Below, piece by piece: positions 19,062-30,711 of a DNA stretch of 64,000 nt; position 1 is the stretch's first letter; every line of letters starts with the position of its first letter. Origin of the DNA: Escherichia phage BEU50; sequence record OM632671.1. One strand, 5' to 3'. The translations under genes were made by a program, and so were the position numbers. The notes beneath the pieces were generated by a model. It worked only from the letters and a program-made list of their open reading frames with translations, had not been told where the DNA came from and did not search any database.

Positions 19062-20177
19062 TTAAACTTCTCTAAATTCCTGTCCAAACACTTTACCAGT
19101 TTTAGACGATGCCTGTGTAGGAAGTACCATTATATCTGGAGGTGAAGCCGATTCACAGACATAATTAACGCGAATACCATTGACGCCAAATTCGGCAGGT
19201 TTTGAAATGCCGCCATTTCTTGATACTTCAGAAAAGCTTAAATTTCTCATACCGCCTTGACCCGCTTGGGCGGTTCTCTGTGTGTATATCGTAAATCCTA
19301 CTGCATTTTCAGGAACAACTACATAATCTTCTTTTAATTCCCAAGACCCAGCTTGCCCAGTAAACTCAGCTTGGGTCGAGGAAATATATCCATTTGATGC
19401 ATCATAAAAACGAATAGATATATTTGCAGTTCCAAGATCAAGTAAATCAGCATCAGCATATAGTTGTGCTTTAAGATAAAGAACATCACCAGGAATTAAA
19501 TTGTAGTCAGAAAGTTTACTTATAGCAGCTGAAGTTGGTAAACGCGCAATTTCATTATTAGTTCCACCAACCGCAGACATAAATTGCTCAACGCTTTCGT
19601 ATGTTCTTTTAGGAAATCCTGTAGCTCCGACGTCTTCTAAACTATCAAATACAACATCTAAAATAGTTTGATAATCATCTGTGCTTTTTCTATTACTTAG
19701 TTTAACATGCTCTAATGCAATAGCTCTTTTAGAAGAAGTATAAAAAGCAGCATATGACACGTCAAATCTTGACAATACTGAATCTGATGGAAAAACTGAA
19801 GTTCCTGCTCCCCTTAACCAAGATACCACTTCAGGAGGAAAATTAACCTTTCCGCTAGTTAATATAGCAACAAGTCTATTGTTTGACAAAGAATTCATGA
19901 AACTGACAAAAGTGGTAGATGTTGTATTGTTTGAAGCAGAAAAAGCATATGACTTACTATCAACTAATGCTCCCGTAGAAGGGTCAAAAACTCTTAAATG
20001 AAGACCTGCACTAAATGTTTGATTTCCAACGGGATTATCCTGAAATTTAACATATGGTCCCGCAGTAGAAAGCGGGCAAGAACCCGCTATGCTTATTTTA
20101 TATCTTACTGAATTGCTTTCCGATAAAAATGGCGTTTGGACATATCCTTGTCCAAACTCTGCCATAAATTTTTCCAT
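19062..20177 (-). CDS. 35: long tail fibre hinge connector gp35
   Basis: 371 aa; synteny between gp34 and gp36. Confidence 0.85.
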   Translation of the reverse strand: MEKFMAEFGQGYVQTPFLSESNSVRYKISIAGSCPLSTAGPYVKFQDNPVGNQTFSAGLHLRVFDPSTGALVDSKSYAFSASNNTTSTTFVSFMNSLSNNRLVAILTSGKVNFPPEVVSWLRGAGTSVFPSDSVLSRFDVSYAAFYTSSKRAIALEHVKLSNRKSTDDYQTILDVVFDSLEDVGATGFPKRTYESVEQFMSAVGGTNNEIARLPTSAAISKLSDYNLIPGDVLYLKAQLYADADLLDLGTANISIRFYDASNGYISSTQAEFTGQAGSWELKEDYVVVPENAVGFTIYTQRTAQAGQGGMRNLSFSEVSRNGGISKPAEFGVNGIRVNYVCESASPPDIMVLPTQASSKTGKVFGQEFREV

Positions 20178-20185
20178 AATACCTC

Positions 20186-23100
20186 TTATTCAACCCATTC
20201 AAATTTAACAGTTTTATTCACTGGGTCAGGAATAATGCGAACATTACCAATTCGTAAGAAATCACGAATAGTAAGATTACCTATTATTCCATTATCAGAT
20301 GGGATTGCTCCTATATCCGAAGGTTGAGGAGGATTACCTCCATCGAATACCTGAACAAAACTTGACCAAGAGTTTTTGGTTTTCTGCCATGTACGTGTCC
20401 AGCGAGTGGTACGTGCTTCTGGGGTCGTTGGATAAGTAATCCAATCTTGGTAAAGTGAATCAAGTGTGTTACCAAACTGAGTCAATGTACCAGGAGATTT
20501 AACTTCTTCACCGCGTTCTAAATATGGAAGTCCAGTCACTTCATTAGTTTTTTCAACCATTTTAAAATAACCCGGGAACTGGTTATAAGTGGCTGAATCA
20601 TTAATATCGATTGACCAGAATCCTACAGTATCAGATGTTGGCGCACGGGTATATAAATCAGATGTTTTAACACCTTGAGAACGAATTCTCGAGTTAACAG
20701 TTAAACCGCCTGAACTTATAGTAGCACCTTTTGCAATGATTAAGCTTTCACCAATCGTTACTTGGCCAGATGCATTATTAATAGATAAAGGACGTAATCC
20801 ATTAAATCCGCCAGTTTGATCACCCGATGCAGTAAGCATAAAATTCGTTACTGACCCATCATTGCGAACAATGAAACCATAATTTCCGTTAATAGCACGG
20901 AAAGCATTTGCGCTTCGAGAAATAATTTCACCAGTTGCAGTGACTGAATTACCAAATGTTGCTACACCATTTGCATTCAATGTTCCTGAAGCATTAACAT
21001 TTATCGGTGTTACTGTACCGTTGATATTAAATGTTATATTTCCAGCTTTATTACGCTGAGAATAAAAATGACTAGACGTTTCATCACTAACTTCAAATAC
21101 GGTAGAACGTGTTGTGTCTGATTCCCCACTAAATTGATTTCCCCACACTCTGACTGTCATCGTTTGAGCCGGGTTTGTTCCAGTTTGAGGTCCTTTCTCA
21201 AAAATCAATCGAGTTGCCGTTCCAGTATTAGAAATAGTTAATGTACTATTTGCTGAAACTGATCCACCGAATGTAGCAGTACTAGATGATACAAGAGGGG
21301 CACTCAGATTCGTTTGTTGGGTTAAGGTTAGTGAACCATTAACTGTTTGTGCAATGTCCCTACGAATGAACTGGAGCGAATCTAGACCATCTAATAAATT
21401 ACTATCTACAGCTTTTGCTTTTAATGGCAAATAATTTGCTAATACGCGATTTAATTCATATGGTGATACTGCATAACCATTTTTCTCATATGATTCTAAT
21501 GGTTGTGTTGAACCTACCGTATCATTACCAACGAATGTAATTGAACCAGATGAAGTTTTAACAAACCCTCTTATCAGAGTAGTTGCTGCCCAAGTTGGTT
21601 CACTCTGCACAATCCATTTTAAATTTTTTGGAGATACAGCAGTATTTGCTGATGTTCCAGTCACAGTTTCAGACTGAGTTGCAACTTTAATAACACCTTC
21701 CTGTGCTTCAGTAGATTTAGTACCTAAAAGCTTTTTAGGAGTTATTAAAACATTATCTAATGTTCCTGCAGCAGCTTCAACTTGTGTAGCTACACGAAGT
21801 GTACCACGCTGTGTCTCATTTGCTTCAAGAATATTAAGTGTATAATGGTCCCAGAGAGTTCCTGATTCAACTAATCCAGATAGAGCAACAACAGAAGTAC
21901 GATCAGTACTATTAAATCTAGTTTTAATTTTTAATGGTGTAGAGATGCGAGTATCGTCGACGCCTGCGTCGAATTCAACTTGCGTAGCAATTTCAGCTAT
22001 ACCACTTAAACTTTCAGTTGCTCTACGGTCATTTAAAGTTTTAGGAGTGACTGCACGAGTATAGTCAGTTCCTGTGTTAACTTCACTTTGCGTAGCAATT
22101 TCAATTAAACCAATTCTTCCATCAGTTGATGTCTTTTTATGTAACGTTTCTGGCGTTACAACCGCATTTGCCCATCCTTCTTGGCTTTGTCCAGCAATTA
22201 CTTCACTTTCAACTGCTAAAATTACTGCGCCTTGTTGCGTTGGAGTAGCTTTATACTGATCCAAAGCTTTAGGTGAAACAACTAAATTATTAGTGTTTTT
22301 ATTATAAACATTCGTACCATTTAATTCACGGCTAGAAGCTGGAGTAGCTCCTGCAGTAGATACATAAGTTACAATACCAGATAATGATTCAGAACCTTGG
22401 CGAGCTTGAAGCTTTTTAGGAGTGATGATTGTAGTATCATCAGTACCTGTATTAGTTTCCTGCTGCGTAGCAATTTCAGCGACACCTCTACGAGTTTCTG
22501 TAGCAGTTCTTTCATTCAGCTTTTTAGGAGTGATGATAAGGTCATCTGCAAAAGAGAATGTGGTGTTCTGATTCACTTGAGCAGTAGTTGCTATTCTTGC
22601 AATACCTCTGCGAGTTTCTGTAGCAGTACGATTAGCTAACGTTTCTGGAGTAATTGCTAATTCTTTTTGTGGAGAATTTTCTAAATCAGCATTTGCTTGA
22701 GCTTGCGTAGCTAAAGCAATTACGCCTAATCTTGCTCTAGTAGAAGCATTTAAAGAGTCTACTCTTTCTACAGTTGGAACGTTTTGCTGTACAACCCAGC
22801 ATTTTCCATCAGAATCTTCTATATAAGCAAGTTGTAAAACTGGAACATAATTAGTTTCACCGTTAAAAACTAATTCTTGAACTGTTACCCATTCAGCTTC
22901 AGGCGGATATTCTGAACGTTTTGGGAATTGCAGCAATTGAACTGAGGAAGCAATTTTATCTTCACCTGCAGCTTTGATTTTAACTGTTTGTCCTTTTCTC
23001 ATGTAATTCATGGAAATTTTAACAGTATCACCAACAGAAATATCAGTCGGAAGCTGAAGTTCAATTGTTTGGGTTGTTCCATTATTCGCGCCAAATACCA

Positions 23101-24055
23101 TGACTTCTTCATTTGGACGAATATTAGAATTAGTTGTTATAATGCGTAAACGTGCTTTACTATCCCCGTCAAACAATCTCCACAATTTCTCATTATCATC
23201 AAACATCAAGAAACCGTCAATCGATGTACGGCCTTCAATGGAATGAGTTCCAACTTCTTGCACTGACGTTGTTTCATCATATGTCGTAACAATTGTATGA
23301 TAAAGTGGATTTAATTTATCTAAATCAACGAAATTAATGATATCTCCATGATTGGCAAATCTTGGAAGCTTAACATTAATCGGCGCGGCAGAAGTAAATC
23401 TACGTACGATAAAATCATTAGATTGTGCTTGATATGCAGTCGATGGAGTAACAATCGCAGCTTCTCTGCTATAATCAGCAATATACATTTGCCACAAACG
23501 ATTATTAAAAATGAATACCATCTGTGACTTTGGATGAGTCATTAAAACTGAACGTACCTGTTCACCTCTAAAATTGACAATACTCTGATTTGAAGAATTT
23601 ATTTTAACCTGATTTATGCCAGGTTTTCCACCGATATCTTGAATTATTACGGTTTCTCCATCAAGCGGAGAAGGTGGTAAAGTAAACTCAATGTCATTGC
23701 CAACTGATGTATCTACTGAAATTGCTTCTCCGGATTTTAATTGATATGGTCCAGATGATACGGTTGTATATACAGCATCAGTACGTAATGCTTTCCAACG
23801 AATTCTATTAAAATTTCCAGCAGGTTTTGGAATATTATCCGTTGCTGCCCAAAAACGATTATTATAAATGATTACAAAATCTTTTAAATATCCACGAGTT
23901 GGATCATATTGCTGAACTGTGTTTTCTTGAATTAAGTAATCAACGTTAACACCGTCAGTTCCTACGGTACGATCAGCTAAAGCTACGTTGATTATTTTAT
24001 CGCCACCTGCGTCCAGACCATCTTCTGCTCTGAACTTTCTTTTAATCTCGGCCAT
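20186..24055 (-). CDS. 34: long tail fibre proximal subunit gp34
   Basis: 1289 aa; N-terminus MAEIKRKFRAEDGLDAGGDKIINVALADRTVGTDGVNVDYLIQ and C-terminus KTVKFEWVE match T4 gp34. Confidence 0.92.
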   Translation of the reverse strand: MAEIKRKFRAEDGLDAGGDKIINVALADRTVGTDGVNVDYLIQENTVQQYDPTRGYLKDFVIIYNNRFWAATDNIPKPAGNFNRIRWKALRTDAVYTTVSSGPYQLKSGEAISVDTSVGNDIEFTLPPSPLDGETVIIQDIGGKPGINQVKINSSNQSIVNFRGEQVRSVLMTHPKSQMVFIFNNRLWQMYIADYSREAAIVTPSTAYQAQSNDFIVRRFTSAAPINVKLPRFANHGDIINFVDLDKLNPLYHTIVTTYDETTSVQEVGTHSIEGRTSIDGFLMFDDNEKLWRLFDGDSKARLRIITTNSNIRPNEEVMVFGANNGTTQTIELQLPTDISVGDTVKISMNYMRKGQTVKIKAAGEDKIASSVQLLQFPKRSEYPPEAEWVTVQELVFNGETNYVPVLQLAYIEDSDGKCWVVQQNVPTVERVDSLNASTRARLGVIALATQAQANADLENSPQKELAITPETLANRTATETRRGIARIATTAQVNQNTTFSFADDLIITPKKLNERTATETRRGVAEIATQQETNTGTDDTTIITPKKLQARQGSESLSGIVTYVSTAGATPASSRELNGTNVYNKNTNNLVVSPKALDQYKATPTQQGAVILAVESEVIAGQSQEGWANAVVTPETLHKKTSTDGRIGLIEIATQSEVNTGTDYTRAVTPKTLNDRRATESLSGIAEIATQVEFDAGVDDTRISTPLKIKTRFNSTDRTSVVALSGLVESGTLWDHYTLNILEANETQRGTLRVATQVEAAAGTLDNVLITPKKLLGTKSTEAQEGVIKVATQSETVTGTSANTAVSPKNLKWIVQSEPTWAATTLIRGFVKTSSGSITFVGNDTVGSTQPLESYEKNGYAVSPYELNRVLANYLPLKAKAVDSNLLDGLDSLQFIRRDIAQTVNGSLTLTQQTNLSAPLVSSSTATFGGSVSANSTLTISNTGTATRLIFEKGPQTGTNPAQTMTVRVWGNQFSGESDTTRSTVFEVSDETSSHFYSQRNKAGNITFNINGTVTPINVNASGTLNANGVATFGNSVTATGEIISRSANAFRAINGNYGFIVRNDGSVTNFMLTASGDQTGGFNGLRPLSINNASGQVTIGESLIIAKGATISSGGLTVNSRIRSQGVKTSDLYTRAPTSDTVGFWSIDINDSATYNQFPGYFKMVEKTNEVTGLPYLERGEEVKSPGTLTQFGNTLDSLYQDWITYPTTPEARTTRWTRTWQKTKNSWSSFVQVFDGGNPPQPSDIGAIPSDNGIIGNLTIRDFLRIGNVRIIPDPVNKTVKFEWVE

Positions 24056-24089
24056 TCTCCCGGGCTCCTATTGTGTTTTCAATAATAAG

Positions 24090-24097
24090 TATTTATA
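24090..24097 (-). promoter_or_regulatory. late promoter TATAAATA (gene 34)
   Basis: TATTTATA on plus strand, about 35 nt upstream of gp34 ATG. Confidence 0.55.
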
Positions 24098-24100
24098 CTT

Positions 24101-24130
24101 GTTTACTTTAAGATTTAGATAGTATATAAT
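24101..24130 (+). promoter_or_regulatory. T4-type early promoter candidate (rnh)
   Basis: GTTTAC 24101-24106, TATAAT 24125-24130. Confidence 0.5.
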
Positions 24131-24159
24131 AGAAATCTCACTAATTGAACGAGGTTCAT

Positions 24160-25077
24160 ATGGATTTAGAAATGATGTTGGATGAAGATTACAAAGAAGG
24201 AATTTGCTTAATTGACTTTAGTCAGATTGCGCTTTCAACTGCTCTGGTAAACTTCCCAGATAAAGAAAAAATTAATTTATCAATGGTTCGTCATTTGATA
24301 TTGAACTCAATTAAGTTTAATGTCAAAAAAGCAAAAACGCTTGGATACACTAAAATTGTGCTGTGTATTGATAACGCGAAATCTGGATACTGGCGTCGTG
24401 ATTTTGCTTATTATTATAAGAAAAACCGTGGAAAAGCACGAGAAGAATCTACTTGGGACTGGGAAGGTTATTTTGAATCCAGCCATAAAGTTATAGATGA
24501 ATTGAAAGCTTATATGCCATACATTGTTATGGATATTGATAAGTATGAAGCAGATGACCACATTGCTGTTCTTGTTAAAAAGTTCTCTTTAGAAGGACAT
24601 AAGATTTTAATCATTTCATCGGATGGTGACTTTACACAGCTTCACAAATATCCAAATGTTAAGCAATGGTCACCGATGCATAAGAAATGGGTTAAAATTA
24701 AAAGCGGTTCTGCTGAAATTGACTGTATGACTAAAATCCTTAAAGGCGACAAAAAGGATAACGTTGCTTCAGTTAAAGTACGATCTGACTTTTGGTTTAC
24801 CAAAGTTGAAGGTGAACGGACTCCTTCAATGAAAACTTCAATCGTTGAAGCTATTGCTAATGATCGTGAGCAAGCTAAGGTGCTTCTCACAGAATCTGAA
24901 TATAATCGTTATAAAGAAAATTTAGTTCTAATTGATTTTGATTATATTCCTGATAATATTGCTTCAAACATTGTGAATTACTATAATTCATATAAATTAC
25001 CACCGCGTGGCAAAATTTATTCATATTTTGTAAAAGCGGGTCTTTCTAAATTAACTAATAGCATTAATGAATTTTGA
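24160..25077 (+). CDS. rnh: RNase H (5'-3' exonuclease, FEN family)
   Basis: 305 aa from ATG 24160 (ORF-track 24145 is TTG); MDLEMMLDEDYKEGICLIDFSQIAL matches T4 RNase H. Confidence 0.9.
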   Translation: MDLEMMLDEDYKEGICLIDFSQIALSTALVNFPDKEKINLSMVRHLILNSIKFNVKKAKTLGYTKIVLCIDNAKSGYWRRDFAYYYKKNRGKAREESTWDWEGYFESSHKVIDELKAYMPYIVMDIDKYEADDHIAVLVKKFSLEGHKILIISSDGDFTQLHKYPNVKQWSPMHKKWVKIKSGSAEIDCMTKILKGDKKDNVASVKVRSDFWFTKVEGERTPSMKTSIVEAIANDREQAKVLLTESEYNRYKENLVLIDFDYIPDNIASNIVNYYNSYKLPPRGKIYSYFVKAGLSKLTNSINEF

Positions 25078-25085
25078 GGTGAATA

Positions 25086-25355
25086 ATGGCTAAAAAAGAA
25101 ATGGTTGAATTTGATGAAGCTATCCATGGCGAAGACTTGGCTAAATTTATTAAAGAAGCATCTGATCATAAACTGAAAATTTCCGGTTATAATGAACTGA
25201 TTAAAGATATTCGAATTCGTGCTAAAGATGAACTTGGCGTTGATGGTAAGATGTTTAATCGTCTATTAGCTTTGTATCATAAAGATAACCGTGATGTGTT
25301 TGAAGCTGAAACTGAAGAGGTAGTTGAACTTTATGACACAGTTTTCTCTAAATGA
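25086..25355 (+). CDS. dsbA: double-stranded DNA binding protein DsbA
   Basis: 89 aa; size and position between rnh and gene 33. Confidence 0.7.
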   Translation: MAKKEMVEFDEAIHGEDLAKFIKEASDHKLKISGYNELIKDIRIRAKDELGVDGKMFNRLLALYHKDNRDVFEAETEEVVELYDTVFSK

Positions 25356-25671
25356 CATTCGTCCGGTCGATGAGACCGGTCTTTCAGAAAAAGAACTTTC
25401 AATTAAGAAAGAAAAGGATGAAATAGCAAAGCTTCTTGATCGTCAAGAAAATGGATTTATTATTGAAAAAATGGTAGAAGAGTTTGGAATGAGTTATCTT
25501 GAAGCTACAACAGCATTCTTAGAAGAAAATTCTATTCCTGAAACTCAATTTGCTAAATTTATTCCTTCGGGTATAATTGAAAAAATTCAGTCAGAAGCTA
25601 TTGACGAAAATCTTTTACGTCCTTCTGTTGTTCGTTGTGAAAAAACTAATACATTAGATTTTCTACTATGA
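25333..25671 (+). CDS. 33: late transcription co-activator gp33
   Basis: 112 aa from ATG 25333 (MTQFSLNDIRP...); C-terminus ...TLDFLL. Confidence 0.75.
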   Translation: MTQFSLNDIRPVDETGLSEKELSIKKEKDEIAKLLDRQENGFIIEKMVEEFGMSYLEATTAFLEENSIPETQFAKFIPSGIIEKIQSEAIDENLLRPSVVRCEKTNTLDFLL

Positions 25672-25727
25672 TTAAACTCCGCATGCCTGCTGGTGGTGAA
25701 AGATACATTGATGGTAAATCAGTTTAG
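25668..25727 (+). pseudogene. 59: helicase loader gp59, first 19 codons only
   Basis: [19 protein letters not shown] matches gp59 N-terminus, then TAG; ATG overlaps gp33 stop. Confidence 0.6.
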
Positions 25728-25810
25728 TGAGTATTTTGATAATAAAATTTCTACAGTTAAAACTTCTTCTGATTGTTACTATGATATTACTGTTTTGACG
25801 GAAAAACAAT

Positions 25811-26137
25811 ATGTTGAATTATCACCGCGCGGGCCGTCTATGCCGGGTAGTGAATAAATATAAATCCGACTTTGATGTTAATATTCACCGTGGTACATTT
25901 TGGGGAAATTACGTCGGTAAAGATGCTGGCAGCCGGGAGGCTGCCATTGAATTATTCAAAAAAGATTTTATACGTCGAATTAAATCCGGAGAAATAACTA
26001 AAGCACATTTAGAGCCTTTACGTGGAATGAGGCTAGGATGCACATGTAAACCAAAGCCGTGTCATGGTGATATAATAGCTCATATAGTTAACCGACTGTT
26101 TAAAGACGATTTTCAAGTTGAGGACTTATGCAATTAA
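25811..26137 (+). CDS. conserved hypothetical protein (DUF4326-like Cys/His motif)
   Basis: [12 protein letters not shown] motif; overlaps nrdA start. Confidence 0.55.
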
Positions 26138-28392
26138 TTAATGTTATCAAAAGTAGTGGTGTTTCTCAGAGCTTTGACCCGCAAAAAATTATTAAAGTTT
26201 TATCTTGGGCAGCTGAAGGAACATCAGTAGATCCTTATGAATTATATGAAAATATTAAATCTTATCTCCGTGATGGAATGACAACTGATGATATTCAGAC
26301 TATTGTCATTAAGGCCGCTGCGAATTCTATTTCGGTTGAAGAGCCTGATTATCAATATGTAGCTGCACGCTGTTTAATGTTCGCTCTTCGTAAGCATGTT
26401 TATGGGCAGTATGAACCACGTTCATTTATTGACCATATTTCTTACTGCGTAAATGAAGGTAAATATGACCCTGAATTATTGTCAAAATATTCAGCAGAAG
26501 AAATTACATTTTTAGAATCAAAAATTAAGCACGAGCGGGATATGGAATTTACTTATTCCGGGGCGATGCAATTAAAAGAAAAATATCTAGTCAAAGATAA
26601 AACCACCGGTCAAATTTATGAAACTCCGCAGTTTGCATTTATGACTATTGGAATGGCATTGCATCAAGATGAACCTGTTGATAGACTAAAACACGTTATC
26701 CGTTTTTATGAAGCAGTATCCACTCGACAGATTTCATTGCCAACTCCTATTATGGCTGGTTGCCGTACTCCGACTCGACAGTTTAGTTCATGTGTTGTTA
26801 TTGAGGCAGGAGATTCATTGAAGTCTATCAATAAGGCTTCTGCTTCAATTGTTGAATATATCTCTAAACGCGCTGGAATTGGTATTAACGTTGGTATGAT
26901 TCGTGCCGAAGGTTCTAAGATTGGCATGGGTGAAGTACGCCATACTGGTGTTATTCCTTTTTGGAAACATTTTCAGACTGCAGTTAAATCATGTTCACAG
27001 GGTGGAATTCGTGGCGGCGCTGCTACTGCTTATTATCCTATTTGGCATTTGGAAGTTGAAAATCTTCTCGTTTTGAAAAATAACAAAGGCGTAGAAGAAA
27101 ACCGCATTCGTCATATGGATTATGGTGTTCAACTGAATGATTTGATGATGGAACGTTTTGGAAAGAACGATTACATTACTTTGTTCAGTCCCCATGAAAT
27201 GGGTGGAGAGCTTTATTATTCTTATTTTAAAGACCAAGACCGTTTCCGTGAATTATACGAAGCAGCAGAAAAAGACCCTAATATTCGTAAAAAGCGTATT
27301 AAAGCCCGTGAACTATTTGAATTGCTCATGACTGAACGTTCAGGAACAGCAAGGATTTATGTACAGTTCATTGATAATACGAATAACTATACTCCGTTTA
27401 TTCGTGAAAAGGCACCTATTCGTCAGAGTAACTTGTGCTGTGAAATTGCTATTCCAACAAATGATGTGAATAGTCCTGATGCTGAAATTGGATTGTGTAC
27501 TCTCTCTGCATTCGTACTAGATAATTTTGACTGGCAAGACCAAGATAAAATTAATGAATTGGCAGAAGTTCAAGTTCGTGCTCTTGATAATCTTTTGGAT
27601 TACCAAGGATATCCAGTTCCTGAAGCAGAAAAAGCTAAAAAGCGTCGTAACCTTGGCGTAGGTGTTACCAACTATGCAGCTTGGCTGGCAAGTAACTTTG
27701 CTTCTTATGAAGATGCTAACGATTTAACACATGAACTATTTGAGAGATTACAGTATGGACTCATTAAAGCATCCATTAAGCTCGCCAAAGAAAAAGGACC
27801 TTGCGAATATTATTCAGACACTCGTTGGTCTCGAGGCGAATTACCTATCGACTGGTACAATAAAAAGATTGACCAAATCGCAGCTCCAAAATACGTTTGT
27901 GACTGGTCGTCGCTGCGGGAAGACCTCAAGCTCTTTGGCATCCGTAATAGCACATTATCAGCACTTATGCCATGTGAGTCATCTTCCCAAGTTTCTAACA
28001 GTACAAACGGTATCGAGCCTCCACGTGGACCGGTAAGTGTTAAAGAATCAAAAGAGGGTTCCTTTAATCAAGTCGTGCCCAATATTGAGCATAACATAGA
28101 CCTCTATGATTATACGTGGAAATTAGCTAAGAAAGGTAATAAACCTTATCTTACGCAGGTAGCTATTATGCTGAAATGGGTATGTCAATCAGCTTCAGCG
28201 AATACATACTATGACCCGCAAATTTTTCCAAAAGGAAAGGTTCCAATGTCAATAATGATTGATGACATGCTATATGGATGGTATTATGGCATTAAAAATT
28301 TCTATTATCATAATACCCGTGATGGTTCTGGTACTGATGATTATGAAATAGAAACTCCAAAAGCTGAAGATTGTTCATCCTGTAAATTATGA
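26128..28392 (+). CDS. nrdA: aerobic ribonucleotide reductase large subunit
   Basis: 754 aa; ATP-cone N-terminus; active-site Cys motifs; C-terminal Cys pair CSSCKL. Confidence 0.92.
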   Translation: MQLINVIKSSGVSQSFDPQKIIKVLSWAAEGTSVDPYELYENIKSYLRDGMTTDDIQTIVIKAAANSISVEEPDYQYVAARCLMFALRKHVYGQYEPRSFIDHISYCVNEGKYDPELLSKYSAEEITFLESKIKHERDMEFTYSGAMQLKEKYLVKDKTTGQIYETPQFAFMTIGMALHQDEPVDRLKHVIRFYEAVSTRQISLPTPIMAGCRTPTRQFSSCVVIEAGDSLKSINKASASIVEYISKRAGIGINVGMIRAEGSKIGMGEVRHTGVIPFWKHFQTAVKSCSQGGIRGGAATAYYPIWHLEVENLLVLKNNKGVEENRIRHMDYGVQLNDLMMERFGKNDYITLFSPHEMGGELYYSYFKDQDRFRELYEAAEKDPNIRKKRIKARELFELLMTERSGTARIYVQFIDNTNNYTPFIREKAPIRQSNLCCEIAIPTNDVNSPDAEIGLCTLSAFVLDNFDWQDQDKINELAEVQVRALDNLLDYQGYPVPEAEKAKKRRNLGVGVTNYAAWLASNFASYEDANDLTHELFERLQYGLIKASIKLAKEKGPCEYYSDTRWSRGELPIDWYNKKIDQIAAPKYVCDWSSLREDLKLFGIRNSTLSALMPCESSSQVSNSTNGIEPPRGPVSVKESKEGSFNQVVPNIEHNIDLYDYTWKLAKKGNKPYLTQVAIMLKWVCQSASANTYYDPQIFPKGKVPMSIMIDDMLYGWYYGIKNFYYHNTRDGSGTDDYEIETPKAEDCSSCKL

Positions 28393-28443
28393 TATAATTT
28401 GACTCATGGACGAGTCACTATCTATTAACTAAGTGGAAAATTT

Positions 28444-29118
28444 ATGAGCACAGTTTTTAATACAAACCCAGTTGATGTTTTAAAAGAACCTATGTTTTTT
28501 GGTTCAGGTCTTGGTATTGCGCGTTATGATATTCAACGCCATAAAGTTTTTGAAGATTTGACCGAAAAGCAATTGTCATTTTTCTGGCGTCCTGAAGAAG
28601 TAAACTTAATGATGGATGCTGCACAGTTTAATAAGCTTCCTCAGTATCAGCAAAATATTTTTACTAATAACCTGAAGTATCAATCACTTTTGGATAGCAT
28701 TCAGGGTCGTGCGCCATCTGCTGTACTTATGTCATTAATTTCAGACCCGAGTCTTGATACATGGGTTGCTACATGGACTTTTAGTGAAACTATTCACAGC
28801 CGTTCATATACACATATCATGCGAAATCTTTATACTGATCCATCGAAGGTATTTGATGAGATTGTATTAGATGAAGCTATTATGAAACGTGCTGAATCTA
28901 TCGGTCGCTATTATGATGATGTTCTGATTAAAACCCGTGAATGGGAAAATGCTAAAGAATTTGTAGAACTAGCTAAAGAATCTCCTGATGCTGTCTTTCG
29001 TTTAAACCGAGCTATTAAACAAGAAGCCGAAGCTAAACGTGCTTTAATGAAATCTCTTTACCTCTGTTTGCACGTTATTAATGCCTTAGAAGCATTCGTT
29101 TTTATGTATCTTTTGCGT
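28444..29118 (+). CDS. nrdB: ribonucleotide reductase small subunit, exon 1 (apparent -1 frameshift near 29094)
   Basis: R2 di-iron family; frame gives ...NALEA then off-frame, while the conserved IRFYVSFA continues in the -1 frame up to the 5' splice site. Confidence 0.8.
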
Positions 29119-29228
29119 AAAATGCGCCTTTAAACGGTAACGTTTATCGAAAACTCCTTTAATTGCTGGAAAGTCCTTTATAGGAAAACTAGCAGCCAAG
29201 GTTTTGCTTGCACCTTTAATTAGTATAA

Positions 29229-29236
29229 TATAAATA
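29229..29236 (+). promoter_or_regulatory. late promoter-like TATAAATA upstream of intron ORF
   Basis: TATAAATA about 28 nt before the intron ORF start. Confidence 0.4.
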
Positions 29237-29263
29237 TGGTTATACTTTTAAGAGGATGCACAA

Positions 29264-30073
29264 TTGAACTATAGAAAAATTTGGATAGATGCTAACGGAC
29301 CTATACCTAAAGATTCTGATGGAAGAACATACGAAATCCATCATAAAGACGGTAACCGTGAAAATAATGATTTAGATAATTTGATGTGCCTTTCTATACA
29401 GGAACATTATGATATACATTTAGCTCAAAAAGATTACCAGGCTTGTCATGCTATAAAGCTTAGAATGAAATATTCTCCTGAAGAAATTTCTGAATTAGCT
29501 TCTAAAGCCGCAAAATCTAGAGAAATCCAGATTTTTAATATCCCTGAAGTACGAGCTAAAAATATTGCCTCTATTAAATCTAAGATAGAAAATGGTACAT
29601 TTCATCTTTTAGATGGTGAAATACAGCGTAAATCTAATTTAAATAGAGTTGCATTAGGTATACATAATTTTCAACAAGCTGAGCATATTGCAAAAGTTAA
29701 AGAACGCAATATTGCAGCTATAAAAGAAGGTACTCATGTATTTTGCGGTGGTAAAATGCAGTCAGAAACTCAATCAAAACGGGTAAATGACGGTTCACAT
29801 CATTTCTTATCAGAAGACCATAAGAAAAGAACATCAGCAAAAACATTAGAAATGGTTAAGAACGGGACCCATCCTGCACAAAAAGAAATCACATGTGATT
29901 TTTGTGGTCACATTGGTAAAGGTCCTGGATTTTATCTAAAACATAATGACAGATGTAAATTAAATCCAAATAGAATTCAATTGAATTGTCCATATTGTGA
30001 TAAGAAAGATTTATCACCATCAACATATAAACGATGGCACGGCGACAATTGCAAAACAAGGTTCAACGACTAG
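29264..30073 (+). CDS. I-TevIII: HNH homing endonuclease, intron-encoded (I-TevIII-like, full length 269 aa)
   Basis: HNH motif HHKDGNRENNDLDNL plus C-terminal Cys4 zinc finger; TTG start codon in ORF track. Confidence 0.8.
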   Translation: MNYRKIWIDANGPIPKDSDGRTYEIHHKDGNRENNDLDNLMCLSIQEHYDIHLAQKDYQACHAIKLRMKYSPEEISELASKAAKSREIQIFNIPEVRAKNIASIKSKIENGTFHLLDGEIQRKSNLNRVALGIHNFQQAEHIAKVKERNIAAIKEGTHVFCGGKMQSETQSKRVNDGSHHFLSEDHKKRTSAKTLEMVKNGTHPAQKEITCDFCGHIGKGPGFYLKHNDRCKLNPNRIQLNCPYCDKKDLSPSTYKRWHGDNCKTRFND

Positions 30074-30208
30074 TCTTCGGACGTAGGGTCAAGCGACTCG
30101 AAATGGGGAGAATCCCTCCGGGATTGTGATATAGTCTGGACTGCATGGTAACATGCAGCAGTTCATAAGAGAACGGGTTGAGAATTAGCGAGCTCAATCG
30201 AACATACG

Positions 30209-30711
30209 GTACCTTTAACTTCCATAAAAATATGGAAATTATGGAAGGTAATGCAAAGATTATGAAGTTCATTGCTCGTGACGAACAACTCCACCTCAAG
30301 GGTACTCAGTACATTATCCGTCAACTTCAATCTGGTACTGATGGTGATGAGTGGGTTCAAATTGCTAAAGAATGTGAACAAGAAGCAGTTGACATTTTTA
30401 TGGAAGTAAATAGTCAAGAGAAGGAATGGGCTGCACACCTCTTTAAAGACGGTACATGTCCAGGTATCAATACGCAGAGTATGTGTGCTTTTGTTGATTA
30501 CTTGACTGTGTCTCGTATGAAACAGTGTGGTTTGCCATGCCCAATCACTGATGCTCCGACCAAGCATCCGTATCCTTGGATTCGTGAATATCTGAACTCT
30601 GATTTAGTTCAAGCCGCTCCTCAGGAAGTTGAAATCAGTTCTTATCTTGTCGCACAAATTGATAATGATGTAGACCAAAATGTAATCAATTCATACAAAA
30701 AATATTTCTAA
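30209..30711 (+). CDS. nrdB: ribonucleotide reductase small subunit, exon 2
   Basis: Begins GT-ACC-TTT (..CTFNFHKNMEIMEGNAKI); ORF-track 30178..30711 includes intron-derived leader. Confidence 0.8.

Follow-up and report, generated by a model that had tools for sequence, protein, structure and literature searches.

Positions 29119–30208 of a 64,000-nucleotide (nt) stretch of Escherichia phage BEU50 (OM632671.1; the whole stretch is referred to as the window) carry a group I intron in nrdB that is of the RB3 type and contains the gene for the homing endonuclease I-TevIII, an assignment to which we give a probability of roughly 93%. This is a well-established element. Genetic and biochemical work on the RB3-type nrdB intron and on I-TevIII goes back to 1991 (Eddy & Gold 1991; Robbins 2007, PMC1865063), and near-identical copies are present in dozens of sequenced phages. 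For annotation this means that nrdB is a two-exon gene with an intron at 29119–30208, and that the 269-codon open reading frame (ORF) within the intron is I-TevIII with a TTG start. All features described below lie on the plus strand.

The intron is 1090 nt long and ends in a terminal G at 30208. Exon 1 closes with ...GCGT at 29118 and exon 2 opens with GTACCTTT at 30209, coordinates that had been proposed in a sequence-only reading of this DNA and that hold in the sequence. Upstream, nrdA ends at 28392 and is followed by a 51-nt spacer (28393–28443), as in the related phage a20, before nrdB begins at 28444. Exon 1 (28444–29118), placed by the ORF call and by alignment to RB3, a20 and GBLB0003, is 675 nt long compared with 676 nt in all relatives, and the ORF from 28444 encodes the N-terminal half of the Ribonuc_red_sm domain (Pfam). 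Exon 2 (30209–30711) is identical to that of a20, and the ORF ending at 30711 encodes the C-terminal half of the same domain. Continuous nrdB coding through the intron would have spoken against the sequence-only reading, and it is not found, as translation stops in both frames: at 29131–29133 in the frame of the nrdB ATG and at a TAA (29118–29120) in the conserved frame. The peptide predicted across the splice junction, ...SFACTFNFHKNMEIMEG, is correct locally but does not share the frame of the window's nrdB ATG, the consequence of a 1-nt deletion in exon 1 that the earlier reader missed. When one base is restored at 29093/29094 and position 29118 is joined to 30209, the product is a protein of 392 amino acids (aa) with a single Ribonuc_red_sm match (positions 9–271, 132.5 bits).

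Of the 579 phage records matched by a 1301-nt query that spans the intron, 84, from several genera, cover at least 80% of the query. Identity is highest, at 99.8%, with Escherichia phages a20 and NRG-P0074. RB3 and its sisters RB5–RB10 are 98.1% identical, and in these records nrdB is annotated as a two-piece join with the inner ORF named I-TevIII.

The I-TevIII gene (29264–30073; ORF list, Pfam and RB3 annotation) encodes 269 aa from a TTG start to a TAG stop at 30071–30073. An in-frame TAA (29249–29251) lies four codons 5′ of the TTG at 29264, and the first in-frame ATG is codon 41, past the catalytic residues H26, H27 and N39; TTG is therefore the only workable start, as the sequence-only reading had argued, and the RB3 protein is annotated from the same TTG. 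That reading had also recognised a complete HNH/zinc-finger endonuclease, which is borne out by an HNH_3 match (Pfam, E=6e-13) over residues 4–48 and by two intact zinc fingers, both of the form CX2CX12-13HX3C (C211/C214/H227/C231 and C242/C245/H259/C263). The HNH residues H26, H27, N39 and H48, numbered from the TTG, are all present. Mutagenesis of the RB3 enzyme showed that H26, H27, N39, H48, C211, C214, C242 and C245 matter (PMC1865063), and every one of these tested residues is kept in the window's copy. The window's I-TevIII has 100% identity to the a20 protein and matches the characterised RB3 I-TevIII at 267 of 269 residues, the differences being Y23 (D23 in RB3) and T265 (A265 in RB3). 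A further Pfam match, to the anti-sigma-28 factor FlgM (29483–29605, residues 74–114), falls in the stretch that links the HNH region to the zinc fingers; at 26.2 bits against a cut-off of 25 it is barely over the cut-off and was treated as probably due to chance.

The near-identity to the RB3 enzyme suggests that the endonuclease encoded here would be active. The alternative, that Y23, T265 or a poor TTG start leaves it inactive and that the intron is spread only by passive means or with the help of an endonuclease encoded nearby, as in T4, draws on the two residue differences from the assayed RB3 enzyme and on the finding that MobE mobilises the defunct T4 copy in trans (PMC2790892). We consider this very improbable: the catalytic and zinc-binding residues defined by mutation are all intact, RB3 uses the same TTG start, the a20 protein is identical and the Y23 and T265 codons are also those of GBLB0003. 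Furthermore, the 51-nt nrdA–nrdB spacer holds no mobE-like gene, and the intron therefore has no nearby helper.

Folding the intron core had been proposed as a check on the sequence-only reading, and the fold agrees with a group I ribozyme: P3–P8, with the P3/P7 pseudoknot, are paired in nine natural variants, and slid controls fail. The comparison draws on introns of very different length at the same nrdB site, namely those of S16 (1093 nt), RB3 (1091 nt), a20 (1090 nt), GBLB0003 (1089 nt) and U5 (1083 nt), and the shorter introns of T4 (598 nt), AV109, G8 and one IMG/VR contig (592 nt each), SG1 (420 nt) and CJY920 (309 nt). Nine distinct cores were aligned after the ORF had been cut from the longer introns at an ACAATTG repeat, with CJY920 left whole, and the tested structure comprised 81 pairs (P1–P9.2, P6a, the stem over the ribosome-binding site (RBS) described below, P7.1, P7.2 and the P3/P7 pseudoknot). 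Across the nine variants, 728 of 728 cells are standard pairs (100%). Compensatory changes occur in four pairs, of which P2 contributes two and P5 and P9 one each; five more pairs are changed on one side with pairing kept. When the 3′ partners were moved by 1–3 columns, 33–45% of cells were paired and no compensatory pair appeared. A pseudoknot-free minimum free energy (MFE) fold of the ORF-less core has a z-score of −4.2 and recovers P1, P2, P4, P5, P6a, P7.1, P7.2, P9, P9.1 and P9.2.

The introns were also compared with Rfam. The CJY920 intron, a natural ORF-less homologue that is identical to the window's core at 292 of 317 columns, scores 71.7 bits with RF00028 against a gathering score of 50. 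In the window, a relaxed RF00028 search finds the 3′ core (29918–30158) at 35.6 bits (E=4e-7), below the gathering score of 50, and this match aligns GUUCAACGACUA, GAUAUAGUC, P8 and P9 to the consensus. The conserved R element (GUUCAACGACUA) and S element (GAUAUAGUC) thus align to the Rfam consensus here, as they also do in the ORF-less homologue.

The 5′ half of the core begins with P1 (29115–29127), in which exon GCGU (29115–29118) pairs with the internal guide GCGC (29124–29127), placing a U29118·G29124 pair at the 5′ splice site. P2 (29131–29146) is a UAAACG/CGUUUA hairpin with a GUAA loop, and its compensatory changes, A-U to G-C and G-C to A-U, are seen in S16, CJY920 and SG1. The 5′ strand of P3, CUCCUU (29154–29159), pairs with GGGGAG (30105–30110); these pairs are invariant and hence uninformative. 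P4 (29164–29169 with 29189–29194) encloses P5 (29174–29177 with 29182–29185) in the MFE fold, and P5 contributes one compensatory change, U-A to A-U. P6 pairs CC (29196–29197) with GG (30060–30061), and P6a pairs GUUUUGC (29201–29207) with GCAAAAC (30051–30057), with one-sided U-A/U·G and C-G/U·G changes.

The I-TevIII ORF is placed in the loop closed by P6a, and its last eight codons and TAG stop (30071–30073) double as ribozyme sequence: the 30051–30072 segment, assigned from the fold and the Rfam alignment of GUUCAACGACUA, consists of the 3′ strands of P6a (30051–30057) and P6 (30060–30061), J6/7 and the 5′ strand of P7, GACUA (30068–30072). Two small hairpins follow, P7.1 (30073–30082, GUC-UUCG-GAC) and P7.2 (30086–30099, GGGUC-AAGC-GACUC), both from the MFE fold and paired in all variants, with a G·U to A-U change in P7.2 of G8; extra hairpins between P7 and the 3′ strand of P3 are associated with subgroup IA. 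The 30105–30136 segment, from the fold and Rfam, contains the 3′ strand of P3 (30105–30110), P8 (30111–30116 with 30120–30125), J8/7 and the 3′ strand of P7, UAGUC (30132–30136). P9 (30141–30147 with 30152–30158) has a GUAA loop and shows a compensatory G-C to A-U change as well as one G-C to G·U change, and the MFE fold places P9.1 (30161–30164 with 30171–30174) and P9.2 (30176–30182 with 30193–30199) 3′ of it.

The T4 nrdB intron undergoes GTP-dependent self-splicing. By homology to the T4 and RB3 introns, the intron in the window's nrdB pre-mRNA would fold as a group I ribozyme (P1–P9.2, with the P3/P7 pseudoknot and P7.1/P7.2) and would excise itself after U29118, the U of the U·G pair in P1, and after the terminal G30208.

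We also observe the heptamer ACAATTG at both ends of the ORF, at 29260–29266, where it includes the TTG start, and at 30045–30051; the ORF-less CJY920 intron has a single copy. The repeats point either to a precise loss of the ORF by recombination between them or to a trace left when the endonuclease gene was first inserted.

Several observations weigh against the identification of 29119–30208 as an RB3-type intron with its endonuclease gene. At the gathering threshold, Rfam returns no group I match anywhere in the window, which we attribute to the 843-nt P6a loop (29208–30050), in which most of the ORF lies and which the model is unable to bridge, rather than to the lack of a ribozyme. P3, P4, P7 and P8 are invariant in the sample and hence have no covariation behind them, so that covariation supports P2, P5 and P9 only, plus, one-sidedly, P6a and P7.2. 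The pairing percentage is inflated, as the nine variants are close relatives and the structure had been derived from the sequence of the window itself. Y23 and T265 depart from the RB3 enzyme that was assayed, although a20 has both and GBLB0003 has the same codons. Finally, the frameshift in exon 1 may place the element in a dead gene, or may reflect errors in the sequence.

Expression of I-TevIII would be late and restricted. A T4-type late promoter consensus, TATAAATA (29229–29236), read from the sequence, ends 27 nt before the TTG, a gap that the sequence-only reading had put at about 28 nt, and a Shine-Dalgarno sequence, AAGAGG (29250–29255), lies 8 nt before it. A stem that would sequester the RBS is predicted over 29209–29260, with UGCACCUUU (29209–29217) paired to AGAGG-AUGCA (29251–29260), and an inner hairpin (29223–29229 with 29239–29245) holds the late promoter in the MFE folds. 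The RBS stem is found in the MFE folds of both a mini-intron and the native 29195–29300 segment; the z-score of the native-context fold is only −1.9, and the stem pairs are invariant in the nine variants. This arrangement matches the published regulation of I-TevIII, in which a late promoter is combined with an RBS-sequestering hairpin: early and middle read-through transcripts form the stem, and late transcripts, which begin within it, leave the RBS free (PMC2988022). The restricted late expression suggested in the sequence-only reading agrees with that mechanism. Modeling and the published work together suggest that the Shine-Dalgarno would be buried by pairing with 29209–29217 in read-through pre-mRNA, and that late transcripts from TATAAATA, beginning downstream of that strand, would have a free RBS. 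The weak TTG start should in addition hold the DNA-cutting enzyme at a low level.

The late promoter TATAAATA is absent from U5, G8, SG1 and one IMG/VR contig, all variants with a decayed or shortened I-TevIII ORF, through a small deletion (GTATAATATGATT) that aligns to 29225–29235; promoter and gene therefore decay together. Just 3′ of TATAAATA, position 29239 is G in the window and in S16 and A in a20, RB3 and T4; with G, the promoter hairpin has a U·G in place of a U-A pair, and the pairing is kept. A three-codon mini-ORF, ATG CAC AAT TGA (29257–29268), begins 1 nt after the GAGG of the Shine-Dalgarno, with a stop codon that shares bases with the TTG start (TTGA); all variants in which the start of the ORF is kept have this mini-ORF unchanged. 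The I-TevIII operator that the literature proposes was also sought upstream of the ORF, by aligning the reconstructed intronless homing site (29115–29118 plus 30209–30219) to this region. The best alignment, 13 of 15 positions (TGCGTGTACCTTTAA versus TGCTTGCACCTTTAA at 29205–29219), was equaled in 37 of 500 shuffles and is not significant.

The distribution of the intron among phages speaks to how it spreads. The RB3 intron is mobile and its mobility needs I-TevIII, which binds as a dimer and cleaves at −14/−16 (PMC1865063). By analogy with RB3, repair of the cleaved site from an intron-bearing genome would copy the intron together with flanking exon sequence. A signature of such co-conversion is seen from ~28995 to ~30227, a tract that is nearly invariant among the window, RB3, a20 and GBLB0003; outside it, the same genes differ by 13–28 substitutions per 100 nt. 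A nearly invariant tract within an otherwise diverged nrdB fits homing with co-conversion. Copies of the intron occur in Tequatrovirus (RB3, SHFML-11), Mosigvirus (a20, AV109) and Gelderlandvirus (S16), and near-identical copies across three genera with far more diverged flanking genes make the intron a mobile trait and not a lineage marker. The sequence-only reading had proposed that a full-length intron marks a different T-even lineage, which these copies contradict. Sequence comparison thus indicates that the full-length nrdB intron is a horizontally spreading element. The natural length variants at this one site (309 to 1093 nt) show the gain of a homing endonuclease gene and its subsequent decay, and they also provided the covariation behind the fold.

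The one clear departure from this picture of an intact element in an intact gene lies in exon 1. Alignment to relatives places a 1-nt deletion at 29093–29094, 25–26 nt before the 5′ splice site, where all relatives examined, including T4, S16 and two IMG/VR contigs, read GAAGC[T/A]ATTCGT and the window reads GAAGCATTCGT. The missing base is the wobble base of an Ala codon (GCT/GCA) or one A of GCAATT, and it is the one polymorphic position (T/A) in an otherwise invariant tract. After splicing, the frame of the ATG gives 217 native residues and 26 out-of-frame residues before a stop at codon 244, and the resulting truncated NrdB of 243 residues matches Ribonuc_red_sm over positions 9–141 only, so that as written the two exons do not form a continuous domain. 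The frameshift therefore means that nrdB as written cannot make NrdB. As the deletion lies outside P1, splicing should be unaffected, and expression of the endonuclease should be unaffected as well.

Three further possibilities were considered. A compensating indel was rejected, since the alignment with the a20 exon 1 protein stays in a single frame between the ATG and ~29103 and exon 2 is in the frame of the intact gene. An alternative splice site that restores the frame was also rejected, as it would break the U·G pair of P1 and would still scramble nine conserved residues. Lastly, no link was seen between the frameshift and an endonuclease cleavage site. The deletion at −25/−26 is ~10 bp from the I-TevIII cut site at −14/−16 and far from the MobE nick sites, which are in the 5′ region of nrdB (PMC2790892).

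Two readings of the frameshift then need to be weighed. We think it is probably a sequencing, assembly or editing artefact, in which case the real nrdB would be intact and interrupted by the intron as in a20. The variant is unique among all collections searched: with a 60-nt query over the deletion, none of 633 phage records reaches 99% identity (the best, at 98.4%, corresponds to one gap), and the frameshifted 28-mer was not found in IMG/VR, metagenome contigs or genome contigs, with the intact version of the same stretch present in IMG/VR. The lost base coincides with the T/A polymorphic site, the kind of position at which consensus calling from mixed reads may go wrong. Moreover, from 28995 to 30711 the window differs from a20 at two places only, the deletion at 29093/29094 and the A to G change at 29239. 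An artefact is harder to reconcile with the nature of the site, which is not a homopolymer run of the usual error-prone kind, and with the lack of any other frame-breaking indel in the coding regions compared.

If the frameshift is instead real, an intact intron would reside in an inactivated nrdB, and the phage would rely on host NrdAB, together with any phage anaerobic reductase, for deoxynucleotides. The deletion is present in the sequence as given, and it is the sole uncompensated single-base coding indel across ~27 kb aligned to a20; the other 30 a20 proteins of at least 100 aa that match the window align over their full length in one frame or nearly so, and the sequence is therefore not generally error-ridden. 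The nrd genes of T4 are dispensable in the laboratory, which also counts for a real frameshift. Against this stand the absence of the variant from the records and contigs searched, the polymorphic site, and doubt over the assembly, raised by a junction at which genes 59, 32, frd and td are lost and which occurs in no other record. On balance, we regard a real frameshift as unlikely.

That junction belongs to a mosaic genome context. From 20071 to 25726 the window has 77–80% DNA identity to a20; from 25728 to 28994 it is ~98% identical to Tequatrovirus phages such as SHFML-11; and from 28995 to 53129 it resembles a20 (Mosigvirus), from which it departs between 29 and 31 kb by a single substitution and a single deletion. 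The switch from Tequatrovirus-like to Mosigvirus-like sequence coincides with the upstream edge of the conserved tract around the intron. At ~25727 (25672–25811), the first ~19 codons of gene 59 are fused to sequence that normally lies upstream of nrdA. Nothing in the 64-kb window matches the a20 proteins gp59, gp32, Frd and Td (the genes 59, 32, frd and td take up ~5–6 kb in relatives), no phage record spans the junction, and its 33-mer was not found in IMG/VR or metagenome contigs. Gene 32 is essential in T4. A junction that removes it therefore casts doubt on the integrity of the whole sequence and bears on how the frameshift is read, and the Tequatrovirus-like/Mosigvirus-like mosaic with its otherwise unseen junction adds to the case for an artefact. 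The junction itself suggests a mis-assembly, editing or a relocation of the genes.

Were the deletion real, the window would hold an intact, homing-competent selfish intron that persists in a dead nrdB, within a genome recombined from Tequatrovirus and Mosigvirus, the crossover being at the edge of the co-conversion tract. We judge this full scenario to be improbable; it would be a natural case of a selfish intron that is still able to spread from a dead host gene. The exon 1 frameshift and the gene 59/nrdA junction both merit flagging for resequencing.

The closest characterised counterpart is the RB3 nrdB intron (KM606994), which shares with the window the insertion site, the TTG start, the late promoter, the Shine-Dalgarno and all core helices, with 98.1% identity over 1300 nt. 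The RB3 intron differs in its length of 1091 nt, with an extra A near the 3′ end, in a compensatory G-C to A-U change in P9 and in the protein residues D23 and A265. The RB3 locus also differs in having an intact exon 1 and mobE between nrdA and nrdB; this gap likewise contains an annotated homing endonuclease gene in S16, and an unannotated 642-nt ORF in GBLB0003. Phage a20 (Mosigvirus, OQ067374) has a 1090-nt intron, an identical endonuclease protein and an identical exon 2, and the ~22 kb downstream encodes proteins that are mostly 97–100% identical; upstream of ~28995, however, the window is Tequatrovirus-like instead.

The T4 nrdB intron (598 nt) shares the site, the ribozyme core, the promoter, the Shine-Dalgarno and the start region, but it lacks the equivalent of 29328–29818, a 491-nt segment that lies between the imperfect repeats GAAGAACATA and GAAGACCATA in the window, and hence the part of the gene that encodes the HNH region and the central portion of the protein; the P5 loop is also one A shorter. 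T4's own annotation describes I-TevIII as defective, in line with the sequence-only reading, which had pointed to a deleted, inactive version in T4, and the T4 copy moves only in trans through MobE (PMC2790892). The introns of CJY920, SG1, AV109, G8 and U5 have a homologous core at the same site, but their endonuclease gene is partly or wholly deleted, whereas that of the window is complete.

Beyond nrdB, the element resembles td/I-TevI and nrdD/I-TevII of T4, which are also phage group I introns in genes of nucleotide metabolism. Those two systems likewise have a late internal promoter and an RBS-sequestering hairpin, and their enzymes cleave at a distance from the insertion site (PMC2988022). 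I-TevI and I-TevII are monomeric GIY-YIG proteins, whereas I-TevIII belongs to the HNH enzymes and acts as a dimer.

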